This document shows, piece after piece, positions 8,857 through 64,000 of a stretch of DNA of 64,000 nt. Below the pieces are notes generated by a model. It saw only the letters and a list, made by a program, of their open reading frames with translations, made no database searches and was not told the DNA's origin. The stretch is from an uncultured Bacilli bacterium. GTDB lineage: Bacteria > Bacillota_I > Bacilli_A > RF39 > UBA660. Each line of letters opens with the position of its first letter. Position 1 is the first letter of the stretch. Where the stretch lies: positions 163,103-227,102 of the forward strand of contig CALVQK010000001.1 of NCBI GenBank assembly GCA_944358305.1, read 5' to 3'. A program made the position numbers and the translations under genes.

Positions 8857-9540
8857 ATGACTAAAGTTATCAAGAAGAAAAAATTAAGACTATTACCATT
8901 TTTAATATTTATTATAGTAATCGCTATAATAGTTTTTGTCTGTCTTTTTGTTCTTGATACTAAAGTAAAAAATATTATTATAACAGGAAATGAGGTCCTA
9001 AGTGATGATGAAATCATAGAATTAGCAGGACTTACAGATTATCCAAGTTTCTATAAGACTTTAAATAGTAAGATAGAAAATGGAATTAAAGAAAACCCAC
9101 TTATTAAAGATGTAAATATTGATAGAAGTTTTTATCACATTATTGAAATAAAAGTAGATGAATATGAAATATTATATAAAAGAGAAGATAATGGTAAATA
9201 TGTTTTAGAAAATAAAGATGAAATAACTCTTGATAGTGAAACTCCATACACGATACCAAGATTAATTAATGAAATACCAGATAAAAAATTAAATAGTTTT
9301 ATCAAGTATTATAAAAGAATAGATTTAAACATTAGAGAAAAAATAAGTGAAATAAAGTATGATCCTAATGATTATGATGAAGATAGATTCTTATTATATA
9401 TGGATGATGGTAATAGCGTTTATGTAACTATTACTAAGTTTGAAAGATTAAATTATTATAATGATGTCCTACCTCAATTAGATGGTAGAAAAGGAATACT
9501 TTATTTAGATTCAGGAAACCATTTTAGGATAATGGAATAA
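8857..9540 (+). CDS. divIB: cell division protein DivIB/FtsQ (POTRA domain)
   Basis: Basic N-terminus, single TM and a POTRA-like region. Conserved position after murG-murB. Confidence 0.6.
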   Translation: MTKVIKKKKLRLLPFLIFIIVIAIIVFVCLFVLDTKVKNIIITGNEVLSDDEIIELAGLTDYPSFYKTLNSKIENGIKENPLIKDVNIDRSFYHIIEIKVDEYEILYKREDNGKYVLENKDEITLDSETPYTIPRLINEIPDKKLNSFIKYYKRIDLNIREKISEIKYDPNDYDEDRFLLYMDDGNSVYVTITKFERLNYYNDVLPQLDGRKGILYLDSGNHFRIME

Positions 9541-9557
9541 TAGATAATAATGAATGT

Positions 9558-9597
9558 AAAATAACAATGGGACCAAGACTTATTGTTATTTTTTATT
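9558..9597 (+). terminator. rho-independent terminator after divIB
   Basis: AAAATAACAAT-N13-ATTGTTATTTT stem followed by a T-run. Confidence 0.6.
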
Positions 9598-9625
9598 TGA
9601 ACAATAGGACTCTATGTGTTAATAT
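9597..9625 (+). promoter_or_regulatory. sigma-70-type promoter for the surface-protein gene; duplicated at 60553-60581
   Basis: TTGAAC-17nt-TGtTAATAT (extended -10). Confidence 0.5.
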
Positions 9626-9700
9626 TATATTAGAAAAGGTAGTAACAAATAAGTAGAAATACAAAAGTTGGTACATACTAAAGATTAGGAGTGGAGTCTA

Positions 9701-11470
9701 ATGAAAAGATTATTACTAGAAACAAGCTTTAGTAAAATTTATATGATTTCAGTAATAGTAATAAGCTTACTTATAATAGGAGGCTATTTTTCATATGCTA
9801 TGTTTACAGTAAATAGAGAAAAGGGAAATGCTATAAGTATAGTAACAGGGAATTTAACTTATAAACTAGAGGTAGATGGAAGTGAAGGCAATACTTTAAC
9901 AGTACCACAAAACAGTAGTAGAGAATTTATAGTAACACTATCTAATCCTAATAATAGAAAAGCAAGATTTAACTTTTATTATTTAAATGATTTACCTAAT
10001 AATGTAGAAGCAGGATATATAATAGATTGTGAAACAAACACTTTACCAGAATCTGTTGGCGTAAACTTAGAAACAAGTGGAACAGCAGGTTCTAGTAATA
10101 TATATAAAATAATGGTAGAGAATAATTCTAGTAATGATATAACAATAGAGTTAGGAGTAAATGTAGGACTAGATTATAATGATTTAGAATTACCAAGTAA
10201 TGGACATATATTTAAAGAATATGAGAATGTTCCAAATGCTCCAGAGTTAGATGAAGGAATGATACCAGTAAGTTATGATGGATCTAACTGGGTAAAAGCA
10301 GAGTCTAATAATACAGATAATAGTTGGTATAACTATGATGAACAGATGTGGGCAAATGCTGTCACCGTAACAGAAGAAACAAGAGATATATATAAGAGTG
10401 CTGATGTAGGAACAACAATATCAATGGATGATATAGAGACAATGTGGGTATGGATACCAAGATATAGTTACTCTATAGGAAGCGAAGATGGTACAAATTA
10501 CTATGGAAAAAAAGGATGCTATTTAGAAACAGATCCTACTCAAGCTTTACCAGGAGAAATAGATGTAAGATTTGTATCAACTTCTATAAAAGATAGAGGA
10601 ACAGCTAAATATGTAACAACTACAGGTTCAAGAGAGTATTATACTCCAGATGCCTTTACATTTGGAGATGAAGAACTATCAGGAATCTGGGTAGGAAAAT
10701 TTGAGACAAGTAGTAATTCAAGTTCTCCTGACGGAGGAGGAAATACAACAGAATTAGATCCGATGATAAAACCTAATACTCCAGATTGGCGCTGGATTAG
10801 TGTAAGTAATGCCTTTAATGTATCTTTAAAAATGAATGATGAAGGAAATAGGTATGGAATAGAAAGTACAACCGATACTCATATGATGAAGAATAGTGAA
10901 TGGGCAATAGTAGCCTATCTATCCCAAAGTAAATATGGTAAGTTAGGTAATACTAATTTCACAGGTGACAATAAAGAGATATATCAAAATAAATCAGATC
11001 AATATATAACAGGATGCAGTTATGGTGCTCCAAGTGATGATAGTACGGATTATGGATGTCAATATACCTATGACATCGATATAAACGGAACAGGAGCAAG
11101 TACAACAGGAAATATCTATGGAATTTATGATATGAGTGGAGGAGCTTGGGAGTATGTAATGGGTAATTACAATGATATAGTAGGTGATAGTAATTTTGTT
11201 TCTATGCCAGAATCAAAGTATTATGATAAATATACAAATAGTGATATTTTTTCTTCATGTAATGGTCAGTTATGCTTGAGCCATAATTTAGGCGAAACAG
11301 CAAATTGGTATAATAGTGCAAAAGGCCATGTTACAGAAACATATCCTTGGATGATATGTGGTGGTTATTATTCACAAATTGATTCTAGTTTATTTAAAGT
11401 AGACGCGTCAAATAATTATGGCAGTGCCCATTCACTTGTATCTTTCCGATTAGTAGCAACAACAAGTTAA
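9701..11470 (+). CDS. N-terminally anchored surface protein with C-terminal FGE-sulfatase (formylglycine-generating-enzyme)-like domain, paralogue A
   Basis: Single N-terminal TM/signal anchor. The C-terminal half carries FGE-family-like motifs NSEWAIVAYLS and GIYDMSGGAWEYVMGNY (compare GxYDMxGNVWEW). RBS AGGAGTGGAG. Confidence 0.6.
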   Translation: MKRLLLETSFSKIYMISVIVISLLIIGGYFSYAMFTVNREKGNAISIVTGNLTYKLEVDGSEGNTLTVPQNSSREFIVTLSNPNNRKARFNFYYLNDLPNNVEAGYIIDCETNTLPESVGVNLETSGTAGSSNIYKIMVENNSSNDITIELGVNVGLDYNDLELPSNGHIFKEYENVPNAPELDEGMIPVSYDGSNWVKAESNNTDNSWYNYDEQMWANAVTVTEETRDIYKSADVGTTISMDDIETMWVWIPRYSYSIGSEDGTNYYGKKGCYLETDPTQALPGEIDVRFVSTSIKDRGTAKYVTTTGSREYYTPDAFTFGDEELSGIWVGKFETSSNSSSPDGGGNTTELDPMIKPNTPDWRWISVSNAFNVSLKMNDEGNRYGIESTTDTHMMKNSEWAIVAYLSQSKYGKLGNTNFTGDNKEIYQNKSDQYITGCSYGAPSDDSTDYGCQYTYDIDINGTGASTTGNIYGIYDMSGGAWEYVMGNYNDIVGDSNFVSMPESKYYDKYTNSDIFSSCNGQLCLSHNLGETANWYNSAKGHVTETYPWMICGGYYSQIDSSLFKVDASNNYGSAHSLVSFRLVATTS

Positions 11471-11540
11471 TTGAGTAAAAAAAGAAAACAGTAAATAAAA
11501 AATTATTAGTACTGTGGTATAAGATATTTATTCATAATAA

Positions 11541-11572
11541 AAGGGAAATGAGTTTTTATTCATTTCCTTTTG
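11541..11572. terminator. bidirectional rho-independent terminator between convergent genes
   Basis: AAGGGAAATGA-loop-TCATTTCCTT hairpin. The minus-strand stop codon lies in the loop. Confidence 0.55.
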
Positions 11573-11924
11573 TCATTATTCTTAATTTATCATAACTTTC
11601 TAATCCTTTAGAACTTCCTTCTGGAAGTAGATAAATATAATAAGCTTTAAGTCTTGGCCTAACAAACTTCTCTGTTTTAATAGATGGGTATATTGCTAAG
11701 ATATTATTCTCTTTATCAGTAACTACAATGTCAAGTTTTTGACAAACAAAATAAGTGTTGATCATTTTCTTTTTAGGATAACATAATCCTTCTTTAATAG
11801 GATAAAGATAAAATCTATATCCTTTAATTCTATCCTTAAACTTAGTTACCATTTTAAATTTTATTTTATTCTTACCATTTTTTATATATCTTTCCACGAA
11901 AATCACCTGTATATATAATAACAT
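11556..11924 (-). CDS. small hypothetical protein, possibly DUF192-like
   Basis: MINTYFVCQKLDIVVTDKENNIL resembles the DUF192/COG1430 core. Start is uncertain (ATG 11924 or GTG 11897). Confidence 0.35.
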   Translation of the reverse strand: MLLYIQVIFVERYIKNGKNKIKFKMVTKFKDRIKGYRFYLYPIKEGLCYPKKKMINTYFVCQKLDIVVTDKENNILAIYPSIKTEKFVRPRLKAYYIYLLPEGSSKGLESYDKLRIMTKGNE

Positions 11925-12005: not shown

Positions 12006-13394
12006 ATGAATAATAATCAAAATAGCAGTAATTTATCTAATATGTATGGAACAAATAATGGAGTAGTTCATAATCAAGAGAGTAATAATATTTCAAATCA
12101 AACTAGTAATATGAATACGCAATCAACCGATATAAATAATACTGGAATTGTAGATAGTACGAATAGTTTAAATAATAGTAATAATCAAACTATAAATCAA
12201 AATAATAATATCCTAAAAGATCAGTCAAATATTTTAGGAGAAAATCTTTCTATTAATAGTGAGAGTATTAATCAAAATCTGAATGACAATAGTTCTAACA
12301 TAAATAATGTAAATAATTATTCATCTTCACCCTCAGTTTCTGCTAATATTAATCAAGAACCTTTAAGTGAACAAAAGAAAAGTGAAATAATTGATCATTA
12401 TATCAATCCAGGGCCAGGCAGTAATGAAACAGTAAACAATAATACCGCTTCTAATGATGAAGAATACTTAAAAGCTTATATAGGAAAAAATTATGAGAAA
12501 ATTATGAACAGTAATATTTCTATACCTGCTTTCTTCTTTGCTGAACTTTACTGGTTTTATCGAAAGATGTTCTTATTTGGACTTATTCTAGGTATAATAC
12601 GTATCCTTATTTTAAATAGTCCTTTAGGTCTTTTTGCACTCATTGTAAATGTTATTTGTATTTTTATTACTAATAAAGTCTACTTAATAGATGCTAAATA
12701 TAAGATAAGTAAAATAAAAAGTAAAATGTATGGTAAAAACAGCCAAGAAATACTAAATGCTTGTGCTTCTAAAGGTGGTACAAGTATTGGTCTAACAGTT
12801 GGAGGAATAGCAATAGAAATAGTAGGTATTATCATTTTTCTAATTGTAAGTTTAATAACAGGCATGGCCTCTATCTTTAATGTTGACTTTTTAAATAATT
12901 TGTTCTCTAATGTAAATATAAATATTATTCCTAACTCTTCTAGTGGAGAAGAGTCTAATAAAACTTTTGATGGAACTTTATACTTTGATGTTAATACTAA
13001 TATAACAGATAAAGTAGCAGTAAATGTTCCTAGCGTCTTTGAAGATGAAAGTATGGATTCTCATGAATATGCTTATACTTATAACAGTAATCCTAGTGGT
13101 GTCTTTGGAGATTGTAGTTTTTCTTTAAGTATTGTTTCTAATTATACTAATGCTGAAAACTTAGCGACTGGTATGGCTGAGTATTATAATAATACTACTA
13201 ATATAATTAATACAAATGTAAATGGTATAAATTGGTATGGTCTAAACTATAGTTCAGTTTATAATACTACCGCTTACCTTATGGAACTTGATAATAAAGT
13301 CTATTTATATAAATTTGAAATTGGTGATGACTCAGATCAAGCTGCCTGCAATACATATAATGAACAAATTTTCAATTCAATTAGTCTTAAGTAA
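12006..13394 (+). CDS. hypothetical membrane protein with N/S/Q-rich N-terminal low-complexity region
   Basis: An N-rich disordered region of about 150 aa, then a TM cluster, then a Cys-containing C-terminal domain. Confidence 0.45.
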   Translation: MNNNQNSSNLSNMYGTNNGVVHNQESNNISNQTSNMNTQSTDINNTGIVDSTNSLNNSNNQTINQNNNILKDQSNILGENLSINSESINQNLNDNSSNINNVNNYSSSPSVSANINQEPLSEQKKSEIIDHYINPGPGSNETVNNNTASNDEEYLKAYIGKNYEKIMNSNISIPAFFFAELYWFYRKMFLFGLILGIIRILILNSPLGLFALIVNVICIFITNKVYLIDAKYKISKIKSKMYGKNSQEILNACASKGGTSIGLTVGGIAIEIVGIIIFLIVSLITGMASIFNVDFLNNLFSNVNINIIPNSSSGEESNKTFDGTLYFDVNTNITDKVAVNVPSVFEDESMDSHEYAYTYNSNPSGVFGDCSFSLSIVSNYTNAENLATGMAEYYNNTTNIINTNVNGINWYGLNYSSVYNTTAYLMELDNKVYLYKFEIGDDSDQAACNTYNEQIFNSISLK

Positions 13395-19645: not shown

Positions 19646-21499
19646 ATGGAGAAAGATAATAAAAAGAAAAAAATAATTACTTTAGTAATAAGTATATTAA
19701 TAATAATAATATTGATTCTTGCAATAAGTTATGCTTACTTTTCTACTAGATTAAATGGATCAGATCAAATAGTAAAAGTAGGAGAGTTAGAACTAGTATT
19801 AAATGAAACAAGTGAAGGAATAACTTTGGATAATGCTATAGGATTAAGTGATGAAGATGGTATGAATTTAACACCATCAACATTTGAATTAAGAAATAAT
19901 GGAGATAAGGCCGTTGATTATACTATTTATTTAGATGACAATACAATTGATGATGCAGATACCAGAATAGACGATATGTATTTAAAATACAATCTAAATA
20001 AAAATGGTGCAGATAGTGGTGCGACTTTACTTACTAGAACAGGATCTAATCCAAATAGAGTGCTAGACTCTGGAACTATAGAAGGTGGAGTGACTAATAC
20101 ATATAGTTTAAACTTATGGATAACAGATGAAGTAGATGGAAACTATTCAGGCCAAGTATTTAGTGGAGTCTTAAGAGTAGAGGTTAGTCAAGAAAGAGCT
20201 ATGGAAGCAAGTACAGTATTGCTTGATAATATACCAGAAGATAATCTTTATGATGATGGAATAGATACCTTTATAACAGGCGAAGATCCAAATAATTATA
20301 TATGGTACTCAGGAAAGTTATGGAGAGCGGTGAGTGTTAATAATGAAACGAAGACAGTTAAATTAGTAACACAATGGAGTATAAGTTCTATTCCTTATTC
20401 AAATGGCAGTTCTAAATTTACAGGAAGTTATATGGAAGAATGGTTAAATGATACAAGTGTAGATGGTTTTTTAGGTAATTTAAGAGATCATGAGAACTTT
20501 ATAGTAACAGATGCAAAGTGGGATGCAACAATGGATAATCGAAGTCTAGGTAATATAACAAGACCAAATGGTACAACTGTAGTGACAGATGCTGTAGGTC
20601 TACTTAATATGTATGAATACCAGACAAGTTATACTGGAACTACCTATAGCAATGGATATTTAAATAACGAACTATGGTGGTGGACTTTGACTCCAAGCGA
20701 TAATAGTAGTATTAATGTTATATTTGAACCAGGGAATGTAGGACATAATGAGCCCGCTAGTTCTTTTGGTGTTCGTCCTTCAGTGATACTAAAATCAAGT
20801 ATAAATATAGTTGGTGGTAATGGAAGTGAATATGACCCTTATCGTTTAGATGGCGATAATGACAATAATTTGTCTGGCACATTACTTAATACAAGGTATA
20901 GTGGGGAATACATTAGTTTTGGACTGGGCGAGAATAATTTGTATAGAATAGTAAGCCATGAAACAGAAAAACTAACTAAGATAACAAGTGCTGAAGCTTT
21001 AAAAAAATCTGATGGGTTTGTACAAACAGCTTTTGGCAATGATATAACATTTTCCAAAAATAATGCAATAGGTAGTTTTTTAAATGGTGAATATTTAAAT
21101 AACTATGTTGATAAAAAGCAAAGTGATATGATAGAAGACAGCACTATATGGTATCTTGGAGCAGTAGGAGAAGGTACGTCATATAAATTAGCTAAATATA
21201 CAGATGTAAGTGGAAAAACATTAACTTCAAATAGTACAAGTACCAAAGTAGGGTTGTTAAGATTAGGTGAGTTGCTAGCGGGCCAAACTGACAAATATAT
21301 TAGTAATGCCCATTATTGGCTTTTGACACCATATGATAGTTCTAGAGTTCGTGACATTGGTAATAGTAGTGATTCTTATTTTCTTCCTGTTGGTTGGGCA
21401 GATTATGGCATCAAACCTGCATTAAACCTAAAATCAAATGTTATTATAACCTCAGGTGATGGCACAAAAGAAAATCCATTTGAAATTGCATTGCAATAG
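19646..21499 (+). CDS. N-terminally anchored surface protein, paralogue sharing the N-terminal module with 9701/44730/60656; two C-terminal RPxxNL..GxG..(D/N)P(Y/F) modules
   Basis: A TM anchor followed by SYAYFS...VGELELVLNE...EGITL, alignable to SYAMFT...TGNLTYKLEV...EGNTL of the other paralogues. Two C-terminal modules end GVRPSVILKS..GGNGSEYDPYRL and GIKPALNLKS..SGDGTKENPFEI. Confidence 0.55.
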   Translation: MEKDNKKKKIITLVISILIIIILILAISYAYFSTRLNGSDQIVKVGELELVLNETSEGITLDNAIGLSDEDGMNLTPSTFELRNNGDKAVDYTIYLDDNTIDDADTRIDDMYLKYNLNKNGADSGATLLTRTGSNPNRVLDSGTIEGGVTNTYSLNLWITDEVDGNYSGQVFSGVLRVEVSQERAMEASTVLLDNIPEDNLYDDGIDTFITGEDPNNYIWYSGKLWRAVSVNNETKTVKLVTQWSISSIPYSNGSSKFTGSYMEEWLNDTSVDGFLGNLRDHENFIVTDAKWDATMDNRSLGNITRPNGTTVVTDAVGLLNMYEYQTSYTGTTYSNGYLNNELWWWTLTPSDNSSINVIFEPGNVGHNEPASSFGVRPSVILKSSINIVGGNGSEYDPYRLDGDNDNNLSGTLLNTRYSGEYISFGLGENNLYRIVSHETEKLTKITSAEALKKSDGFVQTAFGNDITFSKNNAIGSFLNGEYLNNYVDKKQSDMIEDSTIWYLGAVGEGTSYKLAKYTDVSGKTLTSNSTSTKVGLLRLGELLAGQTDKYISNAHYWLLTPYDSSRVRDIGNSSDSYFLPVGWADYGIKPALNLKSNVIITSGDGTKENPFEIALQ

Positions 21500-28274: not shown

Positions 28275-29258
28275 TTGTGGCTTATAGTTGTTTATATTGG
28301 TTATATAATTTTTCAACCATTATTAATTAAATATAATCATAAGCTTACAAATAAGAAAACTATAATTATCTCTTTCTTCTTTTTCTTATGTACATATGTA
28401 CAATTGATTTTTTGTCTTCATACAACCTTTGATTTAATTATTAATGCCATTCTTTTTTCATGTTATGCTGGAACATACTGGAATTTAAGACATAATCTTG
28501 AATTTAAAACTTTAAATGAAAATAGAATAGGTAGGAAAGTAGGAATACTCATAATTATTACGCAAATAGCAGATATTACCGCAGGTATCATCTCTGCTTT
28601 AATACTAGATAATTTTAGTATTATACCTTTATTTATAATTTCAACTATTTTAATGATCATATCTATTATCTATATTTTTTTAGTTAAAGAAAAAAGAAGA
28701 AAGAAAACTAAAGATAATATATTAAAATACTTTAAGACAGTTCCAAAAACAACATTATTTCATATTTTTCTCAAGGAAGCCTCAACCGTCATGAGTCAAC
28801 TTTTTTCTCTTTATCTTTTCATCTATGTATCAAACACTTATAGTTTTGCAGGCCTTGCCAACTTTTTCTTAGGCTTAGCAGGAATTATATTTACTTACTT
28901 CTTATCAAAGAAAATAGATGAAAATAGAGAAAAATACTTACTACTAAGTGTTGTTTTAATATGTACAATTTATTTATTAAAAATAAATATAACTTCAGAA
29001 CTTGTTTTAATTATTGTCTTTATAGAAGGTTTTATAAAACAGTTTTATAAAGTTGTTACTAGTAATAACTATTATTTACTAGGCCATAAGTTAGATAAAA
29101 TTACCTATATTTGTGGCAATGAATTATTTGTTAATATTTCAAGAATAATTATTATTTTAATTGGATTCTTCTTAACAGGAAGCTTACCTAAATTAATGTA
29201 CTTTTGTATAGGTCTATTAATTTTATCAGGATTTGTACCTTTTAAAACTAAAAAATAA
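28275..29258 (+). CDS. polytopic membrane protein, tandem paralogue 1 (N-terminus disrupted by frameshift)
   Basis: About 10 TM segments and about 80% identity to the downstream paralogue, with identical blocks (KYFKTVPKTTLFHIFLKEASTVMS; SNTYSFAGLANFFLGLAGIIFTYFLSKKIDE). Confidence 0.5.
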   Translation: MWLIVVYIGYIIFQPLLIKYNHKLTNKKTIIISFFFFLCTYVQLIFCLHTTFDLIINAILFSCYAGTYWNLRHNLEFKTLNENRIGRKVGILIIITQIADITAGIISALILDNFSIIPLFIISTILMIISIIYIFLVKEKRRKKTKDNILKYFKTVPKTTLFHIFLKEASTVMSQLFSLYLFIYVSNTYSFAGLANFFLGLAGIIFTYFLSKKIDENREKYLLLSVVLICTIYLLKINITSELVLIIVFIEGFIKQFYKVVTSNNYYLLGHKLDKITYICGNELFVNISRIIIILIGFFLTGSLPKLMYFCIGLLILSGFVPFKTKK

Positions 29259-29278
29259 TCAAGATAGGAATGATAAAA

Positions 29279-30397
29279 ATGGATAATATAATTTCAAAGA
29301 ACATAATATATTCCAAATTTTTTATATTGTTATCAGCTTTAGCCAAGAATTTATTAGGCACATTTAATGCTATTTATTTGTATAAGCAAGGTTTTTCTTT
29401 AACTTTAGTAGTTTCATGGCAACTAACAGTATATATATGTTACATGATTTTTCAACCATTTATACATAGGTACCTTTATAAGTTCAGTAATAAATTCTTA
29501 ATGGTAATATCCTTCCTATTTTTCTTAAGTGCCTATTTAAAATTAATCTTTGATCTTCATACAACTTTTGATTTAATAGTTAATGCTATCCTTTTTGGTT
29601 TATATGCCAATATCTATTGGAATGTTAGACACAGTCTTGAGTTTAAGACTTTAAATGATAAAAAAATAGGTAGAAAAGTAGGAATAATTTTAATAATTTC
29701 CCAAATATCCGAGATATTAGCATCACTTATCTCTGCTTTTATTCTTGATAACTTTAGTATTATTCCACTATTTATTACCTCTAGTATCTTAATGCTTATA
29801 TCTTTAATTTATGTCTTTATGTTGAAAGAAAAAAGAAGAAAGCCACCTAAGGAATCTATATTTAAGTATTTTAAAACAGTTCCTAAGACAACACTGTTTC
29901 ATATTTTCTTAAAAGAAGCCTCAACTGTTATGAGTCATTTCTTTTCTTTATACTTGTTCCTTTATGTTTCAAATACATATTCTTTTGCAGGACTTGCTAA
30001 CTTTTTCTTAGGCTTAGCAGGAATAATATTTACTTACTTCTTATCAAAGAAAATAGATGAAAAAAGAGAAAGTTATTTACTATTCTGCACAGTATTAATT
30101 TGTACTGTTTATTTACTAAAAATAAATATAACTTCTGAATTTGTTCTAATAGTAGTATTTATGGAAGGCTTTATCAAACAATTCTTTAATGTTGTCTCTA
30201 ATAATAATTATTATTTATTAGGTCATAACTTAGAAAAAACTACTTATATTTGTGGTTATGAATTATTCATAAACTTTGCTAGAGTAGTGATTCTTTTTGT
30301 AGGTTTCTTCTTAACTGGAAGTTTACCTAAACTTATGTATTTTTGCATTGGCTTACTAATTTTATCTGGTTTTCTTCCTTTCAAAATAAAAAAATAA
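29279..30397 (+). CDS. polytopic membrane protein, tandem paralogue 2 (intact); possible transporter
   Basis: See the 28275 ORF. An alternative ATG lies at 29270. Confidence 0.55.
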   Translation: MDNIISKNIIYSKFFILLSALAKNLLGTFNAIYLYKQGFSLTLVVSWQLTVYICYMIFQPFIHRYLYKFSNKFLMVISFLFFLSAYLKLIFDLHTTFDLIVNAILFGLYANIYWNVRHSLEFKTLNDKKIGRKVGIILIISQISEILASLISAFILDNFSIIPLFITSSILMLISLIYVFMLKEKRRKPPKESIFKYFKTVPKTTLFHIFLKEASTVMSHFFSLYLFLYVSNTYSFAGLANFFLGLAGIIFTYFLSKKIDEKRESYLLFCTVLICTVYLLKINITSEFVLIVVFMEGFIKQFFNVVSNNNYYLLGHNLEKTTYICGYELFINFARVVILFVGFFLTGSLPKLMYFCIGLLILSGFLPFKIKK

Positions 30398-35647: not shown

Positions 35648-35745
35648 AATGTCTGTCGCTTCTGGGTGGTGCGACTAATAAATGATCCCAATAGGCAATG
35701 TTTGTCGCTTCTGGGTGGTGCGACTAATAAATGATCCCAATAGAA
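35648..35745 (+). ncRNA. candidate type III antitoxin RNA: two tandem 49-nt repeats
   Basis: Unit 1 (35648-35696) and unit 2 (35697-35745) differ at 3 positions. Each holds a GC-rich hairpin GTCGC-ttctgggtggt-GCGAC, anomalous for this AT-rich genome. The repeats are followed by a terminator and then a ToxN/AbiQ-like ORF. Confidence 0.45.
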
Positions 35746-44729: not shown

Positions 44730-46334
44730 ATGAGATTTAATATCAAAGAATTTATGAAAGCAGATATATCTAAGTTTTATATTTTAATAGCAGGAACTAT
44801 TTGTCTATTAGTATTAGGAGGTTATTTTTCTTACGCTATGTTTACAGTATCAAAAGAACAAGATAATGCTGTAAGTATTATAACTGGTAATTTAGAATAT
44901 GATTTACAAGTAGATGGAGAAGAAGGTAATACTTTAACAGTACCTGCTAATTCAACGAATGACTTTATTGTTACTTTAAGTAATCCCAATAATAGAGAAG
45001 CAAGATTTAATTTCTATTATGAAGATACATTACCTGATGATGTAACAGTTGGTTATGTCCCTGCTAATGGTGTAAATGCTGTTGCAGAAGCCAAAGGTAT
45101 AAACTTATCATCTGATGGTTCAAGTGGTTCTAGTAATACCTATAGAATCCAAGTGAAAAATGATACAGATAGTGAAATAAAAGTTACCTTAGGAGCAGAA
45201 GTAGGATTAGATTATAATGATTTAACATTGCCAGAAAATACTCAAACAGTTGATGAAATAGAACTTTCTCCTGCTGCCAAGACAATTCTTTCTGCTAATG
45301 CGATACAGGATGATTCTAAAAATATGTTTAACTATGTAAACGATAATGCTTTATATGCTTCTATTAATGATGATAGTACAAACTCTACTCCTAATTCTGA
45401 GTCTACAGTAAGCGGGTTATATGCTATTGAAGATGATAATGGTATCAGTTATTATTTTAGGGGTAATGTAAATAATAATAATGTTCAGTTTGGCCAATAT
45501 GATAATGATTACTATATTTACCAAAGTGGTACTAATTATTATCAGAGTGAAGAAAGTTGCATAGAAGCTGGAAACAGCAACTGTACGAGTGTAAAATTAG
45601 CATCTAAGGGCGATAAAATGTACTGGAAGATAGTAAGAATAAATGGTGATGGAAGTTTAAGATTAATCTATAACGGAATAAGTCCGACTCCTAATGGTAG
45701 TGATTTAGCTAATTCTTATGCAATAGGTGTTGCTCCATACAATTTAACTAGTAATGATCCAAAATATACTGGCTATACCTACGATAATGGAACAAATAGT
45801 TTTATTAAAAGAGAAATAGATACATGGTATAATAATACATTAGGAATTAATACTAATTATGATAGTAAAGTTTTAAGCAATATATTTTGTAGTGATAGTA
45901 GTGGTTACAAGTTAGGAACAGATTATGGTCTAGATGATACTAACTATAATGTCTTTGCTAGTTTTAATAGATTAAGACAAGATTTAAGTAATTATTCTAA
46001 ACCAAATGCTCCAACATTAAAATGTCAAGGGACAGAAGAAACTTATGGTGGATCATATAATTTAAAAGCTGCTTTAATAACAATAGATGAACTAAATATA
46101 GCAGGACTTGGAAGCGAAGCGACTACTTATTTAAGTCAAGATAGTTCCCCACTATATTATTGGACTATGACACCTGCTGCTTTTAATAACAACAATGCAT
46201 TCACTTGGCTTGACAGTTTAGATAATGTTAATGTTACTAATAATTACGCTATACGTCCTGTTATTAATTTATCATTAGAAAATGCTTTTGCAAGTGGCAG
46301 TGGTACTACTGATGATCCTTATATTGTATCATAG
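44730..46334 (+). CDS. N-terminally anchored surface protein, paralogue with shared N-terminal module and one C-terminal RPxxNL..GxG..DPY module
   Basis: GGYFSYAMFTVSKEQDNAVSIITGNLEYDLQVDGEEGNTLTVP...ARFNFYYED aligns to the 9701/60656 N-terminal region. C-terminus AIRPVINLSLENAFASGSGTTDDPYIVS. Confidence 0.55.
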   Translation: MRFNIKEFMKADISKFYILIAGTICLLVLGGYFSYAMFTVSKEQDNAVSIITGNLEYDLQVDGEEGNTLTVPANSTNDFIVTLSNPNNREARFNFYYEDTLPDDVTVGYVPANGVNAVAEAKGINLSSDGSSGSSNTYRIQVKNDTDSEIKVTLGAEVGLDYNDLTLPENTQTVDEIELSPAAKTILSANAIQDDSKNMFNYVNDNALYASINDDSTNSTPNSESTVSGLYAIEDDNGISYYFRGNVNNNNVQFGQYDNDYYIYQSGTNYYQSEESCIEAGNSNCTSVKLASKGDKMYWKIVRINGDGSLRLIYNGISPTPNGSDLANSYAIGVAPYNLTSNDPKYTGYTYDNGTNSFIKREIDTWYNNTLGINTNYDSKVLSNIFCSDSSGYKLGTDYGLDDTNYNVFASFNRLRQDLSNYSKPNAPTLKCQGTEETYGGSYNLKAALITIDELNIAGLGSEATTYLSQDSSPLYYWTMTPAAFNNNNAFTWLDSLDNVNVTNNYAIRPVINLSLENAFASGSGTTDDPYIVS

Positions 46335-46392: not shown

Positions 46393-46645
46393 TGATTTAT
46401 TTTATCTAATATGATACATTAAAATTAGATGGGAGACTTGTAAAAAAGATGGAAAAGGAAGGAGGAAGAAAAAAGTGAAAAAACTTGTAATTTTGAAAAT
46501 TGAATATACTTTTTAATGTCAATGTTTTAAATTGGTCTAATGAAATGAAAAAATTGATAGGTGTTTTTAAGATCAATTTACAAAATTCCCTTTTTGTTTT
46601 AGGGCTATAATTATGTTACAACTATTGCAGAAAGGAGTTATTGTA

Positions 46646-47602
46646 ATGAAAAAAAGAATGAAAAATATTCCTAAAGGCGTTAGTAATAAAGAAATTAGAG
46701 ATTATATGTTATCTAATAATTTCGTTTATGAAGCAACTTTTGATCCCGTGTTTAAATCAATAATGGGAAACTGTCCTAATTATTTAGCAGATTTAATATC
46801 TAATATAACAGGTATAGATAAAAACTTAATAAAAAAGACATTTAAAGAAAAGAATGTTGAGTATAAAGTAAGTAATGCTTTAGAAAGAAAGAAAACTTCA
46901 GATTTTATCTTTCAGTGTAGAGGCTATATCATTAATCTAGAATGTAATAATGAATACTGGGAAGGTCTAATAGAAAGAAATGAAGCTTACTTTTCTAAAA
47001 TAAAAGGAGAATTATTAAATAAGGGAGAACAATATAGTAAGAATATAAAAGTAATTCAAATAAACTTTGATAATTATAAGGAATATGAAAAAGCTTTAGG
47101 GAAAGAATTAATATCAGATTTTAAGATAAGAAATGGCATTGGTTTAATAGAAACAGAGTCTAGTATAAAATATCATATAAATTTATATAAAATAAAAGAG
47201 AAATATTATAAAGGAGAAGATTTAACGAGATTAGAAAAAGAGTTATTAATATTAACACTAGATGATTATAAAGAAATAATAAAAATAAGTGAAGGAGATG
47301 AAATACTAATGGAAGTAAGAGATAAATTATATGAACTAACAAATGATATAGATAATATAGGGCTTTATGATCCTGAGAAGAGGAGAAAAGAGGAAGAAGA
47401 GTTAAAGATAGAATACCATACTAAACTTGCTAGAGAAGAAGGAATTGAACAAGGAATAGAAAAAGGGATTGAACAAGGGATTAAACAAGGTACTAGTAAT
47501 GAAAAAAAATTTATTGCTAAAAATCTCTTAAAAGATGGATTGCCTATAGATAAAATATCTAAATATACTGGCCTTAGTGAAAAGCAGGTATCACTATTAT
47601 AG
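46646..47602 (+). CDS. Rpn/YhgA-like PD-(D/E)XK nuclease family transposase-like protein
   Basis: C-terminal repeated (E/K)GIEQG motifs and ...IAKNLLKDGLPIDKISKYTGLSEKQVSLL tail typical of this family. RBS AAAGGAG. Confidence 0.55.
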   Translation: MKKRMKNIPKGVSNKEIRDYMLSNNFVYEATFDPVFKSIMGNCPNYLADLISNITGIDKNLIKKTFKEKNVEYKVSNALERKKTSDFIFQCRGYIINLECNNEYWEGLIERNEAYFSKIKGELLNKGEQYSKNIKVIQINFDNYKEYEKALGKELISDFKIRNGIGLIETESSIKYHINLYKIKEKYYKGEDLTRLEKELLILTLDDYKEIIKISEGDEILMEVRDKLYELTNDIDNIGLYDPEKRRKEEEELKIEYHTKLAREEGIEQGIEKGIEQGIKQGTSNEKKFIAKNLLKDGLPIDKISKYTGLSEKQVSLL

Positions 47603-47945
47603 GAGATGAAAATTTAATGGAAGTAAGAGATAAATTATATGAACTAACAAATGATATAGATAATATCGGACTATATGATCCAGAGAAAAGGAGAAAAGAG
47701 GAAGAAGAGTTAAAGATAGAATACCATAGTAAGCTTGCTAGGGAAGAAGGAATAGAGAAAGGAATTAAAAGAGGTGCTAGTAATGAAAAGAAATCTATTG
47801 CTAAAAATCTTTTAGAGATAGGTATATCTAAAAAAGATGTAATGAAAGCGACAGGATTAAACGAGAAACAGTTATCACTATTATAGGAGATAAAAACTTA
47901 ATGGAAGTAAGAAATAAATTATATGAACTAACAAAACTAATTTGA
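47293..47945 (+). repeat. tandem direct repeat (about 284-309 bp, about 2.2 copies) duplicating the 3' end of the Rpn-like gene
   Basis: GGAGATGAAA(T/A)(A/T)TTAATGGAAGTAAGAGATAAATTATATGAACTAACAAATGATATAGATAAT recurs at 47293, 47602 and 47886 (third copy truncated). Confidence 0.85.
47617..47886 (+). pseudogene. in-frame fragment duplicating the C-terminal 89 aa of the Rpn-like protein
   Basis: MEVRDKLYELTNDIDNIGLYDPEKRRKEEEELKIEYH... is near-identical to residues of the upstream gene. A third 14-aa remnant lies at 47901-47945. Confidence 0.6.
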
Positions 47946-57596: not shown

Positions 57597-57947
57597 ATGA
57601 ATATAAAAATTGAAAGAATTAATCACATGATTAGAGAAGAAATAAGTAAAATTTTAATGTTGGAAGTTAAAGATGAAAATATAAAATTCGTAACTGTTAC
57701 TGATTGTGATACATCAAATGATTTAAGTTATTGCAAAGTATATGTAACAGTCTTAGATAGTGAAAAAAAAGAGGAAACTTTAAAAGCTTTAAATAATGCT
57801 AGTAGTTTTATAAGAGGAGAGCTTGCTAAGAGAATTGAGATAAGAAATATTCCTGAACTTAAATTTTTCTATGATGAGTCTATTTCTTATGGAGAAAAGA
57901 TTGATAAGATTATAGATAAAATAAATGAGGAAGATAATGAACTATAA
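57597..57947 (+). CDS. rbfA: ribosome-binding factor A
   Basis: N-terminus ...RINHMIREEISKIL... and KH-like fold length. Conserved position after infB. Confidence 0.85.
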   Translation: MNIKIERINHMIREEISKILMLEVKDENIKFVTVTDCDTSNDLSYCKVYVTVLDSEKKEETLKALNNASSFIRGELAKRIEIRNIPELKFFYDESISYGEKIDKIIDKINEEDNEL

Positions 57948-60129: not shown

Positions 60130-60399
60130 ATGGCTTTAACAAAAGAAGAAAAACAACAAATCATTAAAGATTTTGGTGTTAATGCTAATGATACTGGATC
60201 TGCTCCTGTACAAATAGCAATTTTAACTAAAGAAATTGATAATTTAACAGAGCATTTAAAGACTCATATTCATGATCATCATTCACGCCGTGGTCTTTTA
60301 ATGAAAGTTGGACAAAGACGTAATATGCTTAACTATTTAGCTAAAAAAGATGTTGCAAAATATCGTGAAGTAGTTAAAAAGTTAGGTTTAAGAAAGTAA
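60130..60399 (+). CDS. rpsO: 30S ribosomal protein S15
   Basis: 89-aa protein with conserved ...[22 protein letters not shown]... Confidence 0.9.
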
Positions 60400-60410
60400 A
60401 ATATTTACTT

Positions 60411-60447
60411 AAGAACTATTACATAACTGTAATGGTTCTTATTTTTA
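60411..60447 (+). terminator. rho-independent terminator after rpsO
   Basis: AAGAAC-T-ATTACA-taac-TGTAAT-G-GTTCTT then ATTTTTAT. Confidence 0.5.
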
Positions 60448-60462
60448 TATTAATAACATTCA

Positions 60463-62598
60463 GATTCAGGAAACCATTTTAGGATAATGGAATAATAGAT
60501 AATAATGAATGTAAAATAACAATAAGACTAAAAGTTATTGTTATTTTTTATTTGAACAATAGGACTCTATGTGTTAATATTATATTAGAAAAGGTAGTAA
60601 CAAATAAGTAGAAATACAAAAGTTAGTACATACTAAAGATTAGGAGTGGAGTCTAATGAAAAGATTATTACTAGAAACAAGCTTCAGTAAAATTTATATG
60701 ATCTCTGTAATAGTAATAAGCTTACTTATAATAGGAGGCTATTTTTCATATGCTATGTTTACAGTAAATAGGGAGCAGAGTAATGCAATAAGTATTATTA
60801 CAGGGAACTTAACTTATAAACTAGAAGTAGATGAAAGTGAAGGTAATACTTTAACAGTTCCACAAAACAGTAGTAGAGAATTTATAGTAACACTATCTAA
60901 TCCTAATAATAGAAAAGCAAGATTTAACTTTTATTATTTAAATGATTTACCTAATAATGTAGAAGCAGGCTATATTGTAGATTGTGAAACAAATACTTTA
61001 CCAGAATCTGTTGGCGTAAACTTAGAAACAAGTGGCACAGCAGGATCTAGTAATATATATAAAATAATGGTAGAGAATAATTCTAGTAATGATGTAACAA
61101 TAGAGTTAGGAGTAAATGTAGGGCTTGACTATAATGATTTAGAATTACCAAGTAATGGTCATATATTTAAAGAATATGAGAATGTTCCAAATGCTCCAGA
61201 GTTAGATGAAGGAATGATACCAGTAAGTTATGATGGATCTAACTGGGTAAAAGCAGAGTCTAATAATACAGATAATAGTTGGTATAACTATGATGAACAG
61301 ATGTGGGCAAATGCTGTCACCGTAACAGAAGAAACAAGAGATATATATAAGAGTGCTGATGTAGGAACAACAATATCAATGGATGATATAGAGACAATGT
61401 GGGTATGGATACCAAGATATAGTTACTCTATAGGAAGCGAAGATGGAACAAATTACTATGGAAAGAAAGGATGCTATTTAGAAACAGATCCTACTCAAGC
61501 TTTACCAGGAGAAATAGATGTAAGATTTGTAGATACTAATATAAAAGATAGAGGAACAGCCAAGTATGTAACAACAAGTGGAGCAAGAGAGTATTATACC
61601 CCAGATGCCTTTACATTTGGTAGTGTTGAGCTTAGTGGAATATGGGTAGGAAAGTTTGAGACAAGTAGTTCTAATCCAAGTGTAACAGCAGGAGGAGGCA
61701 ATACAACAGAGTTAGATGCCATGATCAAACCAAATGTGGCAAGTTGGAGAGATATAAATGTAAGTAATGCCTTTAATGTAAGTTTAAAGATGAATAATAA
61801 TGGAAATAGATATGGAATAGAGAGTACAACAGATACTCATATGATGAAGAATAGTGAATGGGCTACAGTTGCCTATTTATCACAATCAAAATATGGAAAG
61901 TTAGGTAATACTAACTTTACTGGGGCGGATAAAGAGATATATCAAAATAAATCAGATCTTTTTATAACAGGATGCAGTTATGGCAGTCCAAGTAACGGGA
62001 ATACAGATTATGGTTGCCAATATCAATATAATATAGAAATAAATGGAACAGGGGCAAGTACAACAGGAAATATCTATGGAATTTATGATATGAGTGGTGG
62101 TGCTCATGAATATACAATGGCAAATTATAATGATTTAATTGCAGATAGTGGTTTTTCTTCTATGCCTGACTCAAAATATTATGATAAATATACAACTGAT
62201 AACATGTTAACAGCTTGTAGTGGAAATGAATGTTTGAGCCATGCTTTATACGAGACTAATAATTGGTATAGTGATTATCGTGGTTTAGTAAGAGAACAAT
62301 ACCCATGGCAATTACGTGGAGGAATTTATAATTATAGTATTAAAGCGGGAATTTTTAATTTTGAAATTAGTAATAGTGCTGTTGGGGGTAATACTATAAA
62401 TGATGCTTTCCGTTTAGTAGCTACAACAAGTTAAGTGAGTAAAAAAGAAAAAATTAGTATTGTATAAGATATTTATTCATAATAAAAGGAAATGAGTTTT
62501 ATTCATTTCCTTTTGTCATTATTCTTAATTTATCATAACTTTCTAATCCTTTAGAGCTTCCATCTGGAAGCAGATAAATATAATAAACTTTAAGTCTT
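60463..62598. repeat. segmental duplication, copy B (inserted between rpsO and pnp)
   Basis: Collinear with 9507-11655. Includes a 34-nt relic of the divIB 3' end and a truncated relic of the convergent small gene. Confidence 0.9.
60656..62434 (+). CDS. N-terminally anchored surface protein with C-terminal FGE-sulfatase-like domain, paralogue B (duplicate of 9701-11470)
   Basis: First ~300 aa nearly identical to paralogue A. The C-terminal FGE-like half is roughly 75% identical, including WEY -> HEY within the GIYDMSGGA(W/H)EY motif. Confidence 0.6.
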   Translation: MKRLLLETSFSKIYMISVIVISLLIIGGYFSYAMFTVNREQSNAISIITGNLTYKLEVDESEGNTLTVPQNSSREFIVTLSNPNNRKARFNFYYLNDLPNNVEAGYIVDCETNTLPESVGVNLETSGTAGSSNIYKIMVENNSSNDVTIELGVNVGLDYNDLELPSNGHIFKEYENVPNAPELDEGMIPVSYDGSNWVKAESNNTDNSWYNYDEQMWANAVTVTEETRDIYKSADVGTTISMDDIETMWVWIPRYSYSIGSEDGTNYYGKKGCYLETDPTQALPGEIDVRFVDTNIKDRGTAKYVTTSGAREYYTPDAFTFGSVELSGIWVGKFETSSSNPSVTAGGGNTTELDAMIKPNVASWRDINVSNAFNVSLKMNNNGNRYGIESTTDTHMMKNSEWATVAYLSQSKYGKLGNTNFTGADKEIYQNKSDLFITGCSYGSPSNGNTDYGCQYQYNIEINGTGASTTGNIYGIYDMSGGAHEYTMANYNDLIADSGFSSMPDSKYYDKYTTDNMLTACSGNECLSHALYETNNWYSDYRGLVREQYPWQLRGGIYNYSIKAGIFNFEISNSAVGGNTINDAFRLVATTS

Positions 62599-62695
62599 TA
62601 CCTTATATACTTTCTGTTTTAATACTGAGATATTATTCATTTTAATTTTGATTACACCATAAAGAAAATTAACTGTTTTGATAAATTAATAAAAA

Positions 62696-62757: not shown

Positions 62758-64000
62758 ATGACTAAAAAAATATATGAATATGATTTTTATGGAAAGAAAA
62801 TAGTAGTAGAACATGGAGAGCTTGCTAAACAAGCAACAGGTTCTGTCTTAGTTAGATATAATGATACTGTAATATTGACAGCTACTGTTATTAATAAAAA
62901 AGCTAATCTTTTGAGCGATTTCTTTCCATTAACAGTTAATTATCAAGAAAAACTTTATTCTGTTGGTAAAATACCCGGAGGCTTTATTAAACGTGAAGGA
63001 AGACCAACTGATGCTGCAACTCTTGCTGCAAGAATGATTGATAGACCAATGAGACCTTTATTTAAAGAAGACTTTAAAAATGAAGTTCAAGTTATCAATA
63101 CTGTTTTATCAGTTGATCAAGATTGTTCTCCTGAGTTAACAGCAATGTTGGGATCAAGCCTTGCAACTATGATTAGTGGTGCACCTTTCTTAGGACCTAT
63201 CGCTGGAGTTAAAGTGGGCTATATTGATGGGGAATATATTATTAATCCAACAGTAGAAGAATTAGAAAAAAGTGAATTAGACCTTACTGTCGCTGGGACA
63301 AAAGACGCTATTAATATGGTAGAAGCAGGCGCTAAACAAGTTAGTGAAAAAATTATGCTCGAAGGATTAATGAAAGGTCATGAAGCAATTAAAGAATTGT
63401 GTACTTGGCAAGAAGAAATTATTTCTGATATTGGTGTTACTCCTTTTGAATATGAAAGTTTAATTATTGAAGATAATTTAAAAGATGAAGTAGCTAAACT
63501 AATTGAAAAAGACTTAGATGAAGCTTTAAGAATTAAAGAAAAATTAGAGCGTTATGCTAGAATTGATGAAATTAAAGATAACTTATTAGAAAAATATAAG
63601 GAAGAAAATATTGAGTTAGAAGATGAAGATCTAGATTTATTACTTGTTAAAGTTGAGAAAATATTTAGTGATGTAGAATACAGATTGTTTAGAAATATCG
63701 TTGTTAAAGAAAAAATTAGATCTGATGGTAGAAAAATGGATGAAATTAGGCCTTTATCAACTGACATAGATTTACTTCCTAGAACTCATGGTTCTGCTTT
63801 ATTTACAAGAGGAGAGACACAATGTCTTGCTGTTACAACACTAGGCGCATTAGGAGAACATCAAATTCTTGATGGCCTTAGCTTAGAAGATGAAAAAAGA
63901 TTCATGTTACATTATAACTTTCCTCAATTTTCAGTTGGAGAAACAGGAAGATATGGTGCCCCAGGACGCCGTGAAATAGGACATGGTGCTTTAGGAGAGA
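62758..64000 (+). CDS. pnp: polyribonucleotide nucleotidyltransferase (PNPase), 3' end outside window
   Basis: The N-terminal RNase PH domain sequence matches PNPase. RBS GGAGGAAG. No stop within the window. Confidence 0.9.
   Translation, partial: MTKKIYEYDFYGKKIVVEHGELAKQATGSVLVRYNDTVILTATVINKKANLLSDFFPLTVNYQEKLYSVGKIPGGFIKREGRPTDAATLAARMIDRPMRPLFKEDFKNEVQVINTVLSVDQDCSPELTAMLGSSLATMISGAPFLGPIAGVKVGYIDGEYIINPTVEELEKSELDLTVAGTKDAINMVEAGAKQVSEKIMLEGLMKGHEAIKELCTWQEEIISDIGVTPFEYESLIIEDNLKDEVAKLIEKDLDEALRIKEKLERYARIDEIKDNLLEKYKEENIELEDEDLDLLLVKVEKIFSDVEYRLFRNIVVKEKIRSDGRKMDEIRPLSTDIDLLPRTHGSALFTRGETQCLAVTTLGALGEHQILDGLSLEDEKRFMLHYNFPQFSVGETGRYGAPGRREIGHGALGE

Follow-up and report, generated by a model that had tools for sequence, protein, structure and literature searches.

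The 64,000-nt stretch of DNA analyzed here (the window) comes from an uncultured Bacilli bacterium of the RF39 lineage (contig CALVQK010000001.1) and carries two collinear copies of a gene for a predicted surface protein. These paralogs are putatively expressed and would consist of a membrane anchor, an immunoglobulin (Ig)-like stalk and a C-terminal head with a C-type-lectin fold, as in the formylglycine-generating enzyme (FGE). Copy A lies beside a divIB-like gene, and copy B lies in the spacer between rpsO and pnp. Their 5′ parts are closely similar and their 3′ parts strongly diverged, a mosaic that is the work of recombination and not of diversifying selection. A segment was copied from the divIB locus to the rpsO–pnp spacer, and we think it probable that the 3′ end of B was then replaced by recombination with another family member. 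The features discussed are collected in Table 1.

For comparison, 78 related loci were fetched (labeled L001 and onwards), all of them from short-read metagenome assemblies. A and B denote the divIB-locus copy and the rpsO–pnp copy in any strain, C denotes a third paralog in the window, and winA and winB are the window's own A and B. A and B were aligned globally and scored in 60-nt windows, breakpoints were located by the maximum chi-square method with 200 permutations, and the ratio of non-synonymous to synonymous divergence (dN/dS) was calculated with the Nei–Gojobori method, both by region and in 50-codon blocks.

The preliminary description of this DNA had proposed a segmental duplication, and the repeat search and the global alignment agree on it. 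Collinear homology runs past the coding sequence (CDS) into both flanks, from ~9498/9503 to 11682 at A and from 60458 to 62624 at B, giving a duplicated unit of ~2.15 kb. Identity varies along the unit (97% for 9503–9802/60458–60757, 81% for 10709–11008/61667–61966, and 92% for 11554–11669/62497–62612). At its left end, B carries a copy of 9507–9540, the 34 nt with which the divIB-like gene ends, its stop codon among them. At its right end lies a copy of 11556–11682, the 127-nt 3′ part of a gene convergent to A. This part closes at the 9-mer GTTTTAATA (11674–11682) and leaves a truncated relic of the last ~37 codons. Since both neighboring genes are complete at A and only fragments at B, the A context is the source of the flanks, and B is an insertion that begins ~17 nt past the rpsO terminator, as had been suggested from the relics. 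Less secure is the label 'DUF192-like' given to the convergent gene: a weak NCBIfam match agrees with it, which is sub-threshold (E 0.004) and its sole basis.

In the first step of the proposed history, which the sequences show directly, a 2.15-kb unit was copied from the divIB locus to just past the rpsO terminator. It spans the divIB 3′ end, terminator, promoter, 5′ untranslated region (UTR), CDS and a bidirectional terminator, and closes with the 3′ part of the convergent gene. The intergenic region upstream of A holds a terminator-like hairpin for divIB (stems at ~9560–9568 and 9581–9589, followed by a T run), the loop of which contains the variable sites 9569–9579. It also holds a candidate promoter at ~9599–9627 (TTGAAC, a 17-nt spacer and TAATAT), which scores below the threshold of the promoter scan, and a GGAG ribosome-binding site in the 5′ UTR of copy A.

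The closing 9-mer deserves mention in its own right. GTTTTAATA occurs only nine times on both strands of the window, and it marks the end of the relic in B (62616–62624), the end of a relic at locus L086 (~2043–2051) and the point in L085 where the remnant of a DUF6273 gene meets the sequence upstream of pnp (~2840). Such repeated use of a microhomology suggests a preferred point of illegitimate recombination.

The A and B proteins (589 and 592 aa) are 84% identical, and the mosaic of a conserved 5′ and a diverged 3′ part that had been described for their genes is confirmed. Divergence is not uniform: maximum chi-square analysis places a breakpoint at 10577 (CDS nucleotide 877), with a value reached by 0 of 200 permutations. 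To its left, A and B differ at 37 of 1074 nt (3.4%), and to its right at 236 of 1084 nt (21.8%). The 60-nt windows hold 52–60 identical positions between 9525 and ~10600, 27–57 between 10605 and 11555, and 59 at 11556–11615. Between the stop codon and the terminator (11471–11555), identity is ~61%, with indels, and it returns to 91–98% in the terminator and relic (11556–11670). Just upstream of the breakpoint lies a 90-nt block (10401–10490) in which seven of the eight compared sequences agree completely; the eighth, the rpsO–pnp copy of L002, is 98.9% identical. The peptide differences that had been quoted for the two proteins are all present.

Two explanations had been offered for this pattern: diversifying selection acting on the exposed domain at the C-terminus, or partial gene conversion of the 5′ half. 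The first is contradicted by the synonymous sites. Codons 1–290 have a dS of 0.147, a dN of 0.009 and a dN/dS of 0.06, and codons 291–592 have a dS of 0.743, a dN of 0.224 and a dN/dS of 0.30 (0.24–0.30 for the 3′ part). Across the breakpoint, dS thus rises five-fold, which selection on amino acids cannot bring about, so that the two gene parts must have different histories (Fisher p = 4.5e-12 for synonymous changes in the 5′ versus the 3′ part). A dN/dS above 1 was sought by region and in 50-codon blocks of the A and B CDSs and was found nowhere; no block exceeds 0.57. It is true that the ratio climbs in the 3′ direction, from 0.17–0.24 to 0.37–0.57, and that the last ~40 residues are the most variable of the whole family (aa 541–580, between the motifs RGG and SFRLV, with column entropies of 2.3–2.6 bits) and match the ligand-binding variable region of proteins diversified by diversity-generating retroelements (DGRs). 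In the last 72 codons, dN/dS is 0.45 (dN 0.521); dS there is 1.16, and with dS above 1 the ratio becomes unreliable and cannot demonstrate selection. For codons 291–520, selection is contradicted outright. Furthermore, the rise in dS amounts to five- to eight-fold across the breakpoint, and between strains a given locus keeps its cassette 100% conserved. We therefore hold diversifying selection to be very improbable as the source of the mosaic. The case carries a general lesson, in that the synonymous divergence of 5′-conserved/3′-diverged duplicates is best checked before selection is invoked; here, doing so overturned the selective reading.

A positive indication of recombination comes from the origin of the 3′ cassette of B. 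Its segment 61629–62408 matches a gene at locus L028 with 96.3% nt identity over 839 nt, including a run of 420 nt at 100%, and the N-terminal module of that gene is unrelated (21–24% aa identity). Relatives of the B-type cassette are graded in their similarity (96, 91 and 88% aa identity) and all stand behind that other N-terminal module. For the A cassette, the comparisons brought up no relative of this kind. L028 and L004/L007 are contigs of a single metagenome-assembled genome (MAG; all at ~40–46x coverage), a more distant relative that shares only ~78% nt identity with the window over rpsO-truB-pnp. A cassette that is 96–100% identical between genomes whose housekeeping genes are ~78% identical points to recent import. 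By the distribution of relatives, the lineage of the L028 MAG would be the home of the B-type cassette and the rpsO–pnp locus of the window its importer. Partial conversion of the 5′ half, the second of the earlier explanations, stands as part of the story, and the stronger signal is this imported 3′ cassette with its 96–100% match to a gene of a different lineage.

In the second step of the proposed history, homologous recombination would have replaced ~0.8–0.9 kb of the 3′ end of B; the pattern is plain in the alignments, and the direction is the probable one. The left crossover would lie in or just after a highly conserved core (IETMWVWIPRYSY...), and the right crossover near the conserved SFRLV end and the terminator.

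Both loci recur in other assemblies. The divIB locus with copy A was also found in L001 and L087, and the rpsO–pnp locus with copy B in L002, L003 and L085. L001 comes from another sample, matches the window at 99.92% over 13.8 kb and encodes exactly the same protein A. The relics and junctions of the rpsO–pnp insertion are the same in L002 and L003, and L085 is the same at the left junction. These junctions are common to the sampled strains, so the insertion is older than their split. On the right side, L085 lacks the proximal part of the relic and has, like L004, the 3′ end and first ~45 nt of a downstream DUF6273-type gene, joined at the same 9-mer that closes the A-derived segment. L086, from another sample, holds a B-like CDS and a B-like relic ending at GTTTTAATA in a third context, beside an Rpn-family gene. 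A family gene also lies between rpsO and pnp in L004/L007 and in L053, there with no recognizable relics.

The divIB locus always has its own 3′ cassette, with 0 mismatches over 894 nt in L001 as well as in L087. The rpsO–pnp locus carries at least three different cassettes across assemblies: that of L002 differs from the window at 2 of 903 positions, that of L003 (type 3) is 25.7% divergent, and L085 has yet another (type 4). The N-terminal parts of all these alleles, at either locus, are 94–100% identical, and at the rpsO–pnp locus cassette types B, 3 and 4 are set between a common 5′ module and common downstream sequence. The occurrence of both copies with the same unique junctions in the independent assemblies L001, L002, L003, L085 and L087 shows both to be genuine. 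One might suspect an assembly artifact in one copy or in the mosaic, given that 1-kb repeats at 95–100% identity are hard for short-read metagenome assembly, and that all differences between the window and L001 are confined to the repeat and run towards the state of the other copy. We consider this extremely unlikely, as unique junctions and flanking genes are found for both loci in five other assemblies from different samples, the 20–25% divergent 3′ cassettes are linked to locus-specific flanks within read length, and the downstream structure of L085 is unique.

The shared 5′ module has a finer mosaic of its own. Between strains, it is 4.4–7.1% divergent, compared with 0.3–1.3% in the flanking genes (3–9 times more). 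In coordinates of A, winB is 97–100% like the A copy of L001 over 9501–9770, 100% like L086 over 9771–10220, 100% like winA over 10221–10490, and 100% like the B copy of L002 from 10491 onwards. Paralog C was considered as donor of the 5′ variants private to B and rejected: it matches at only 4 of 9 sites in the cluster 9817–9844, and the tract is 100% identical to L086. No more than 11 sites in 13.8 kb distinguish the window from L001. They lie within 9569–9751 or at 10492 and 10510 and without exception show the B state, and 12.7 kb of flank is identical. Across the family, 80 pairs are conserved in the N-terminal and diverged in the C-terminal part and 26 pairs are the reverse, and in one tight allele group 27 of 29 variable columns fall in the N-terminal half.

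In the third step of the proposed history, the shared 5′ 1.07 kb would trade short tracts among paralogs, which would make it more polymorphic between strains than its flanks and yet similar between loci. Ongoing exchange within this module is likely. The cause of the tract pattern is ambiguous: interlocus gene conversion should leave such a signature, and so would an assembler that swaps paths between paralogs with identical stretches longer than k in common.

An alternative history starts from an old duplication, with recurrent gene conversion keeping the 5′ half and flanks of A and B alike while their 3′ halves diverged in place. The high polymorphism of the 5′ module between strains fits this account, as does the 270-nt block 10221–10490, which has zero differences between A and B (dS 0.03 and dN ~0 in codons 181–290). 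The insertion is also common to all sampled strains, and in related species (L004, L053) the rpsO–pnp spacer is likewise occupied by a family gene. Against these observations, the relics in B are 91–100% identical to A to their very ends, which would need two conversion tracts that stop exactly at the original junctions, and none of the 78 loci fetched shows a divIB-linked copy in another species. The B cassette, moreover, is 96–100% identical to a gene from a lineage ~22% divergent, so the 3′ half of B did not diverge in place. An old duplication of this kind is therefore unlikely, in our judgment.

Several points do weigh against duplication followed by cassette replacement. The duplication might be older than it looks, its flanks being held similar by conversion, and the roles of donor and recipient are read from the distribution of relatives. 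With short-read assemblies, the fine 5′ mosaics could be path swaps between near-identical paralogs, a doubt to which the 11 differences between the window and L001, all in the B state, are the most exposed. Finally, 'surface' and 'ligand-binding' are attributes predicted from domain architecture and fold.

Copy A has a transmembrane helix at aa 9–39 that closes in an invariant S-Y-A-x-F-T...E motif. It is followed at aa 50–175 by an Ig-like β-sandwich, modeled confidently and generic in type, for which the fold search gave no informative match in the PDB. The remainder, aa 176–589, was modeled by AlphaFold2 (AF2) as a C-type-lectin/FGE fold with a predicted local distance difference test score (pLDDT) of 92 and a predicted template modeling score of 0.94 when 84 diverse homologs were supplied; with 51 close homologs instead, the pLDDT of this domain was below 50. 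By sequence, the 'FGE-like' label of the preliminary description falls short of the Pfam threshold, and by structure its fold is confirmed. For FGE-sulfatase (PF03781), A scores 17.0 bits against a gathering threshold of 23.3 bits and B gives no match. Weak matches (E below 0.01, best E 1.9e-4) occur in 18 of the 51 close homologs, one distant homolog reaches 25.4 bits, and several distant ones have precomputed PF03781 assignments. A sequence search of the PDB yielded a marginal match to 5VF4, the DGR-diversified protein TaqVP, from the single sequence (E 0.0011) and none with a profile; the link to TaqVP, the closest fold, is clear only through the structure model. A nearly invariant C-x4-C pair (C520/C525) may simply form a disulfide in a protein predicted to be secreted.

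The family comprises 4624 clusters at 50% identity. Elsewhere, frequent fusion partners of the head domain are prepilin-type N-termini, Ig-like domains, Flg_new repeats and Laminin_G domains. MAGs of Onthousia-like gut Bacilli are rich in copies, which can number a dozen or more per ~1.5-Mb genome and in part stand in tandem. These fusions and copy numbers indicate an extracellular binding module. The literature search found nothing on this protein family or on Onthousia surface proteins. The family is very large and uncharacterized, and its head domain is the scaffold that DGRs diversify. Polymorphic-toxin-style swapping of C-termini was also considered and set aside: no gene resembling an immunity gene follows, and the very last residues (FRLVATTS) are conserved.

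In the window, the S-Y-A-x-F-[ST] helix is found in four genes (A, B, C and one for a DUF6273 protein) and in no other open reading frame (ORF) above 100 aa. We take this anchor to resemble the SipW-type signal peptides of TasA and camelysin; neither a SipW-type nor any other NCBIfam model matched it at an E of 1 or below. The DUF6273 protein (617 aa, 19646–21499) stands alone after efp in the window, and its homologs (~70% nt identity) lie directly 3′ of a family gene in L004, L028, L029 and L040, where the pair appears to be a common unit. Paralog C has the anchor and Ig-like N-terminal module in common with the family (54% aa identity over 173 aa); its C-terminal part is unrelated, and its upstream region is different. 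Some 280 nt 3′ of C lies a gene for an Rpn-family recombination-promoting nuclease/putative transposase (329 aa, TIGR01784 E 3e-17; window 46613–47886), and directly behind it a second, partial copy of its C-terminus occupies 47617–47886 (repeats 47293–47466/47601–47774, 90%). The order of family gene and Rpn gene recurs in eight related loci. These are probably for the most part one orthologous locus with the same ~340-nt spacing, and we claim no functional link between the two.

The fold of the head raises the question of DGRs, which are found in distant members of the family. In L077 and L081, the segment that is most variable in the family is a true DGR variable region. In both loci (L077:5700–9205 and L081:5670–9600), a tandem array of four to six different template-repeat-like units with a period of ~330 nt separates the target gene from the reverse transcriptase, each unit bounded by TGCGCGGCGGT and GGCTCGTTCCGCCTCGTGATG. 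A motif scan found a reverse-transcriptase ORF (GNYTSQ...YMDD) in L077 and L081 only, and none in the window. When one unit of L081 is compared with the adjacent variable region, 17 of 17 mismatches fall at template adenines; the remaining units of L077 and L081 may serve remote paralogs. A pairing of an L077 template with an L079 variable region contains an indel and is not claimed.

Adenine-specific mutagenesis by a remote DGR might have caused the C-terminal tails of A and B to diverge. Judged by the structure model, the A/B head is of the DGR-target type, with its C-type-lectin fold (closest to TaqVP) and the C-terminal position of its variable region. In L003, the tail of the rpsO–pnp allele is GC-rich and its DGR-type boundary motifs are nearly intact, so a DGR elsewhere in the species, acting in trans, is possible. 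For the tails of A and B themselves we regard such an origin as highly unlikely. The 64-kb window contains neither a reverse transcriptase nor a second, template-like copy of either tail. The GC-rich boundary motif TGCGCGGCGGT and the IMH-like GGCTCGTTCCGCCTCGTGATG (initiation of mutagenic homing) were absent from A and B with two mismatches allowed, and both carry AT-rich versions instead (TCTTTCCGATTAGTAGCA and GCTTTCCGTTTAGTAGCT). The tails of A and B differ by indels, and divergence reaches 700 nt upstream of any variable-region equivalent. These equivalents are also constant across samples: that of A is identical in three assemblies and that of B in two, and only two codons separate the B tail from the L028 tail of another species. 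Between the L077/L081 template repeats and the variable-region equivalents of the alleles of the window's species, there was no adenine-only match. It appears that variation of the ligand-binding head in the window, chiefly of its last ~40 residues, arises by paralogy and cassette exchange, and neither by positive selection on point mutations nor by retro-mutagenesis.

A combination of the two mechanisms can be envisaged, which we put forward tentatively and think unlikely: the rpsO–pnp locus as a recipient site in a two-layer diversification of a DGR-type lectin-fold adhesin. In one layer, 3′ cassettes would be swapped between paralogs and species, with homology arms formed by the conserved core and by the terminator and relic that were duplicated along with the gene, and with GTTTTAATA as a recurrent junction. 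In the other, some cassettes, such as that of the L003 allele, would still be open to DGRs with multiple template repeats like those of the relatives. Were this so, the duplicated flanks would be working parts of an exchange unit and not fossils.

Whichever mechanisms contribute, the known DGR variable proteins TaqVP (PDB 5VF4; PMC6328139), TvpA (2Y3C) and Mtd (1YU0) have the same C-type-lectin (FGE-like) fold, and the A/B family resembles them in the position of its variable segment at the extreme C-terminus, between RGG and SFRLV. It differs in that the window lacks a reverse transcriptase, template repeat and GC-rich IMH, and in that the segment is constant between strains, diversity residing in whole 0.8–0.9-kb cassettes and in the number of paralogs. 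TaqVP, moreover, has no counterpart of the N-terminal anchor and Ig-like module. With FGE/SUMF1 (PF03781), the proteins share the motifs GIYDMSGGAWEY, RGG and FRLV, collinear with the Pfam model; unlike that family, they are predicted to be extracytoplasmic members of a variable multigene family, and nothing indicates enzyme activity. A homologous C-terminal head (39–48% identity) in a short anchored protein is also seen in type IV pilin-like proteins (PF07963, N_methyl) of other Firmicutes. A and B lack the G-FTLIE prepilin motif of these proteins and have the S-Y-A-x-F-T module as anchor.

Surface families varied by gene conversion include vlhA of Mycoplasma synoviae, mgpB/MgPar of M. genitalium and pilE/pilS of Neisseria. 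As in these systems, a conserved 5′ part is combined with a variable 3′ part that is replaced between conserved homology arms, and as in the Mollicutes examples, the host belongs to a small-genome, low-GC lineage, here one of Bacilli related to Mollicutes. Unlike in pilE/pilS and vlhA, each of the two copies is full-length and has a promoter region of its own, and no promoterless partial or silent cassettes were found in the window. Variation is documented here between strains and species, and cassettes also cross species. The case is a familiar theme of variable surface-protein families shaped by gene conversion, played on a DGR-type lectin fold. Paralogy and cassette exchange, even across species, would be an alternative or a complement to retro-mutagenesis for varying a ligand-binding surface. 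If confirmed with long reads, the rpsO–pnp locus would be a convenient strain marker and a natural system for recombination-driven variation in uncultured, reduced-genome gut bacteria.

Table 1. Features of the two loci and related elements (window coordinates).
Feature	Position	Strand	Evidence or remark
divIB/ftsQ-like gene	8857..9540	+	Pfam POTRA_1 E 1.9e-13, FtsQ_DivIB_C E 1.2e-7; last 34 nt form the left end of the segment
Duplicated intergenic region	9541..9700	+	Read from sequence
Copy A CDS, 589 aa	9701..11470	+	
5′ recombination breakpoint, codon ~291–294	10571..10583	+	Maximum chi-square at 10577, site table, block identities
Type A variable 3′ cassette of copy A	10577..11539	+	100% identical in three divIB-locus assemblies
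Equivalent of DGR variable region in A, aa 553–582 (CGG to SF of SFRLV)	11357..11446	+	
Terminator hairpin common to both convergent genes	11540..11571	.	Second copy at 62482–62516
Convergent 122-aa gene, weakly DUF192-like	11556..11924	-	NCBIfam PRK03760 E 0.004, sub-threshold
Third paralog C	44730..46334	+	Anchor and Ig-like N-terminal module shared with A/B
rpsO (60130–60399) and terminator (60410–60441)	60130..60441	+	Pfam Ribosomal_S15 in L002/L003 orthologs
34-nt divIB 3′ relic with stop codon	60462..60495	+	
Copy B CDS, 592 aa, intact	60656..62434	+	Upstream region and ribosome-binding site as in A
Tract of B (A coordinates 9771–10220)	60726..61175	+	100% identical to L086 gene, 89–98% to A
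3′ cassette of B, probably imported	61629..62408	+	96–100% nt identity to L028 gene (P0072)
Convergent-gene 3′ relic, truncated	62499..62624	-	Closes at GTTTTAATA (62616–62624)
pnp (polynucleotide phosphorylase)	62759..64000	+	Continues past window end; Pfam RNase_PH/PNPase/S1 in L002 ortholog; tblastn
Helix and S-Y-A-x-F-[ST] regions	9701–9820, 19646–19770, 44730–44870, 60656–60775		

A few further features of the window and its surroundings are worth recording. Beside locus A, at 12006–13394, lies a gene for a 462-aa protein whose long N-terminal half is of low complexity and rich in Asn and Ser and whose center holds transmembrane segments; no Pfam or NCBIfam family match was found for it. 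At 28275–30397, two adjacent paralogs of 327 and 375 aa share stretches of ~75% nt identity (28368–28667/29507–29806), reflecting an older tandem duplication, and at 35648–35745 two tandem 49-nt units, 94% identical, occupy an intergenic space between convergent or divergent genes. The truB gene (57925–59346) is a fusion of an N-terminal VanY-type D-Ala-D-Ala carboxypeptidase with TruB (Pfam VanY and TruB_N in the L002, L003 and L004 orthologs). Just past the right end of the window, L002 and L003, the strains closest to it, have a ToxN-type toxin gene (PF13958) convergent to pnp (L002:9252–9749 and L003:9223–9720), and in L002 this gene is followed by an integrase gene.

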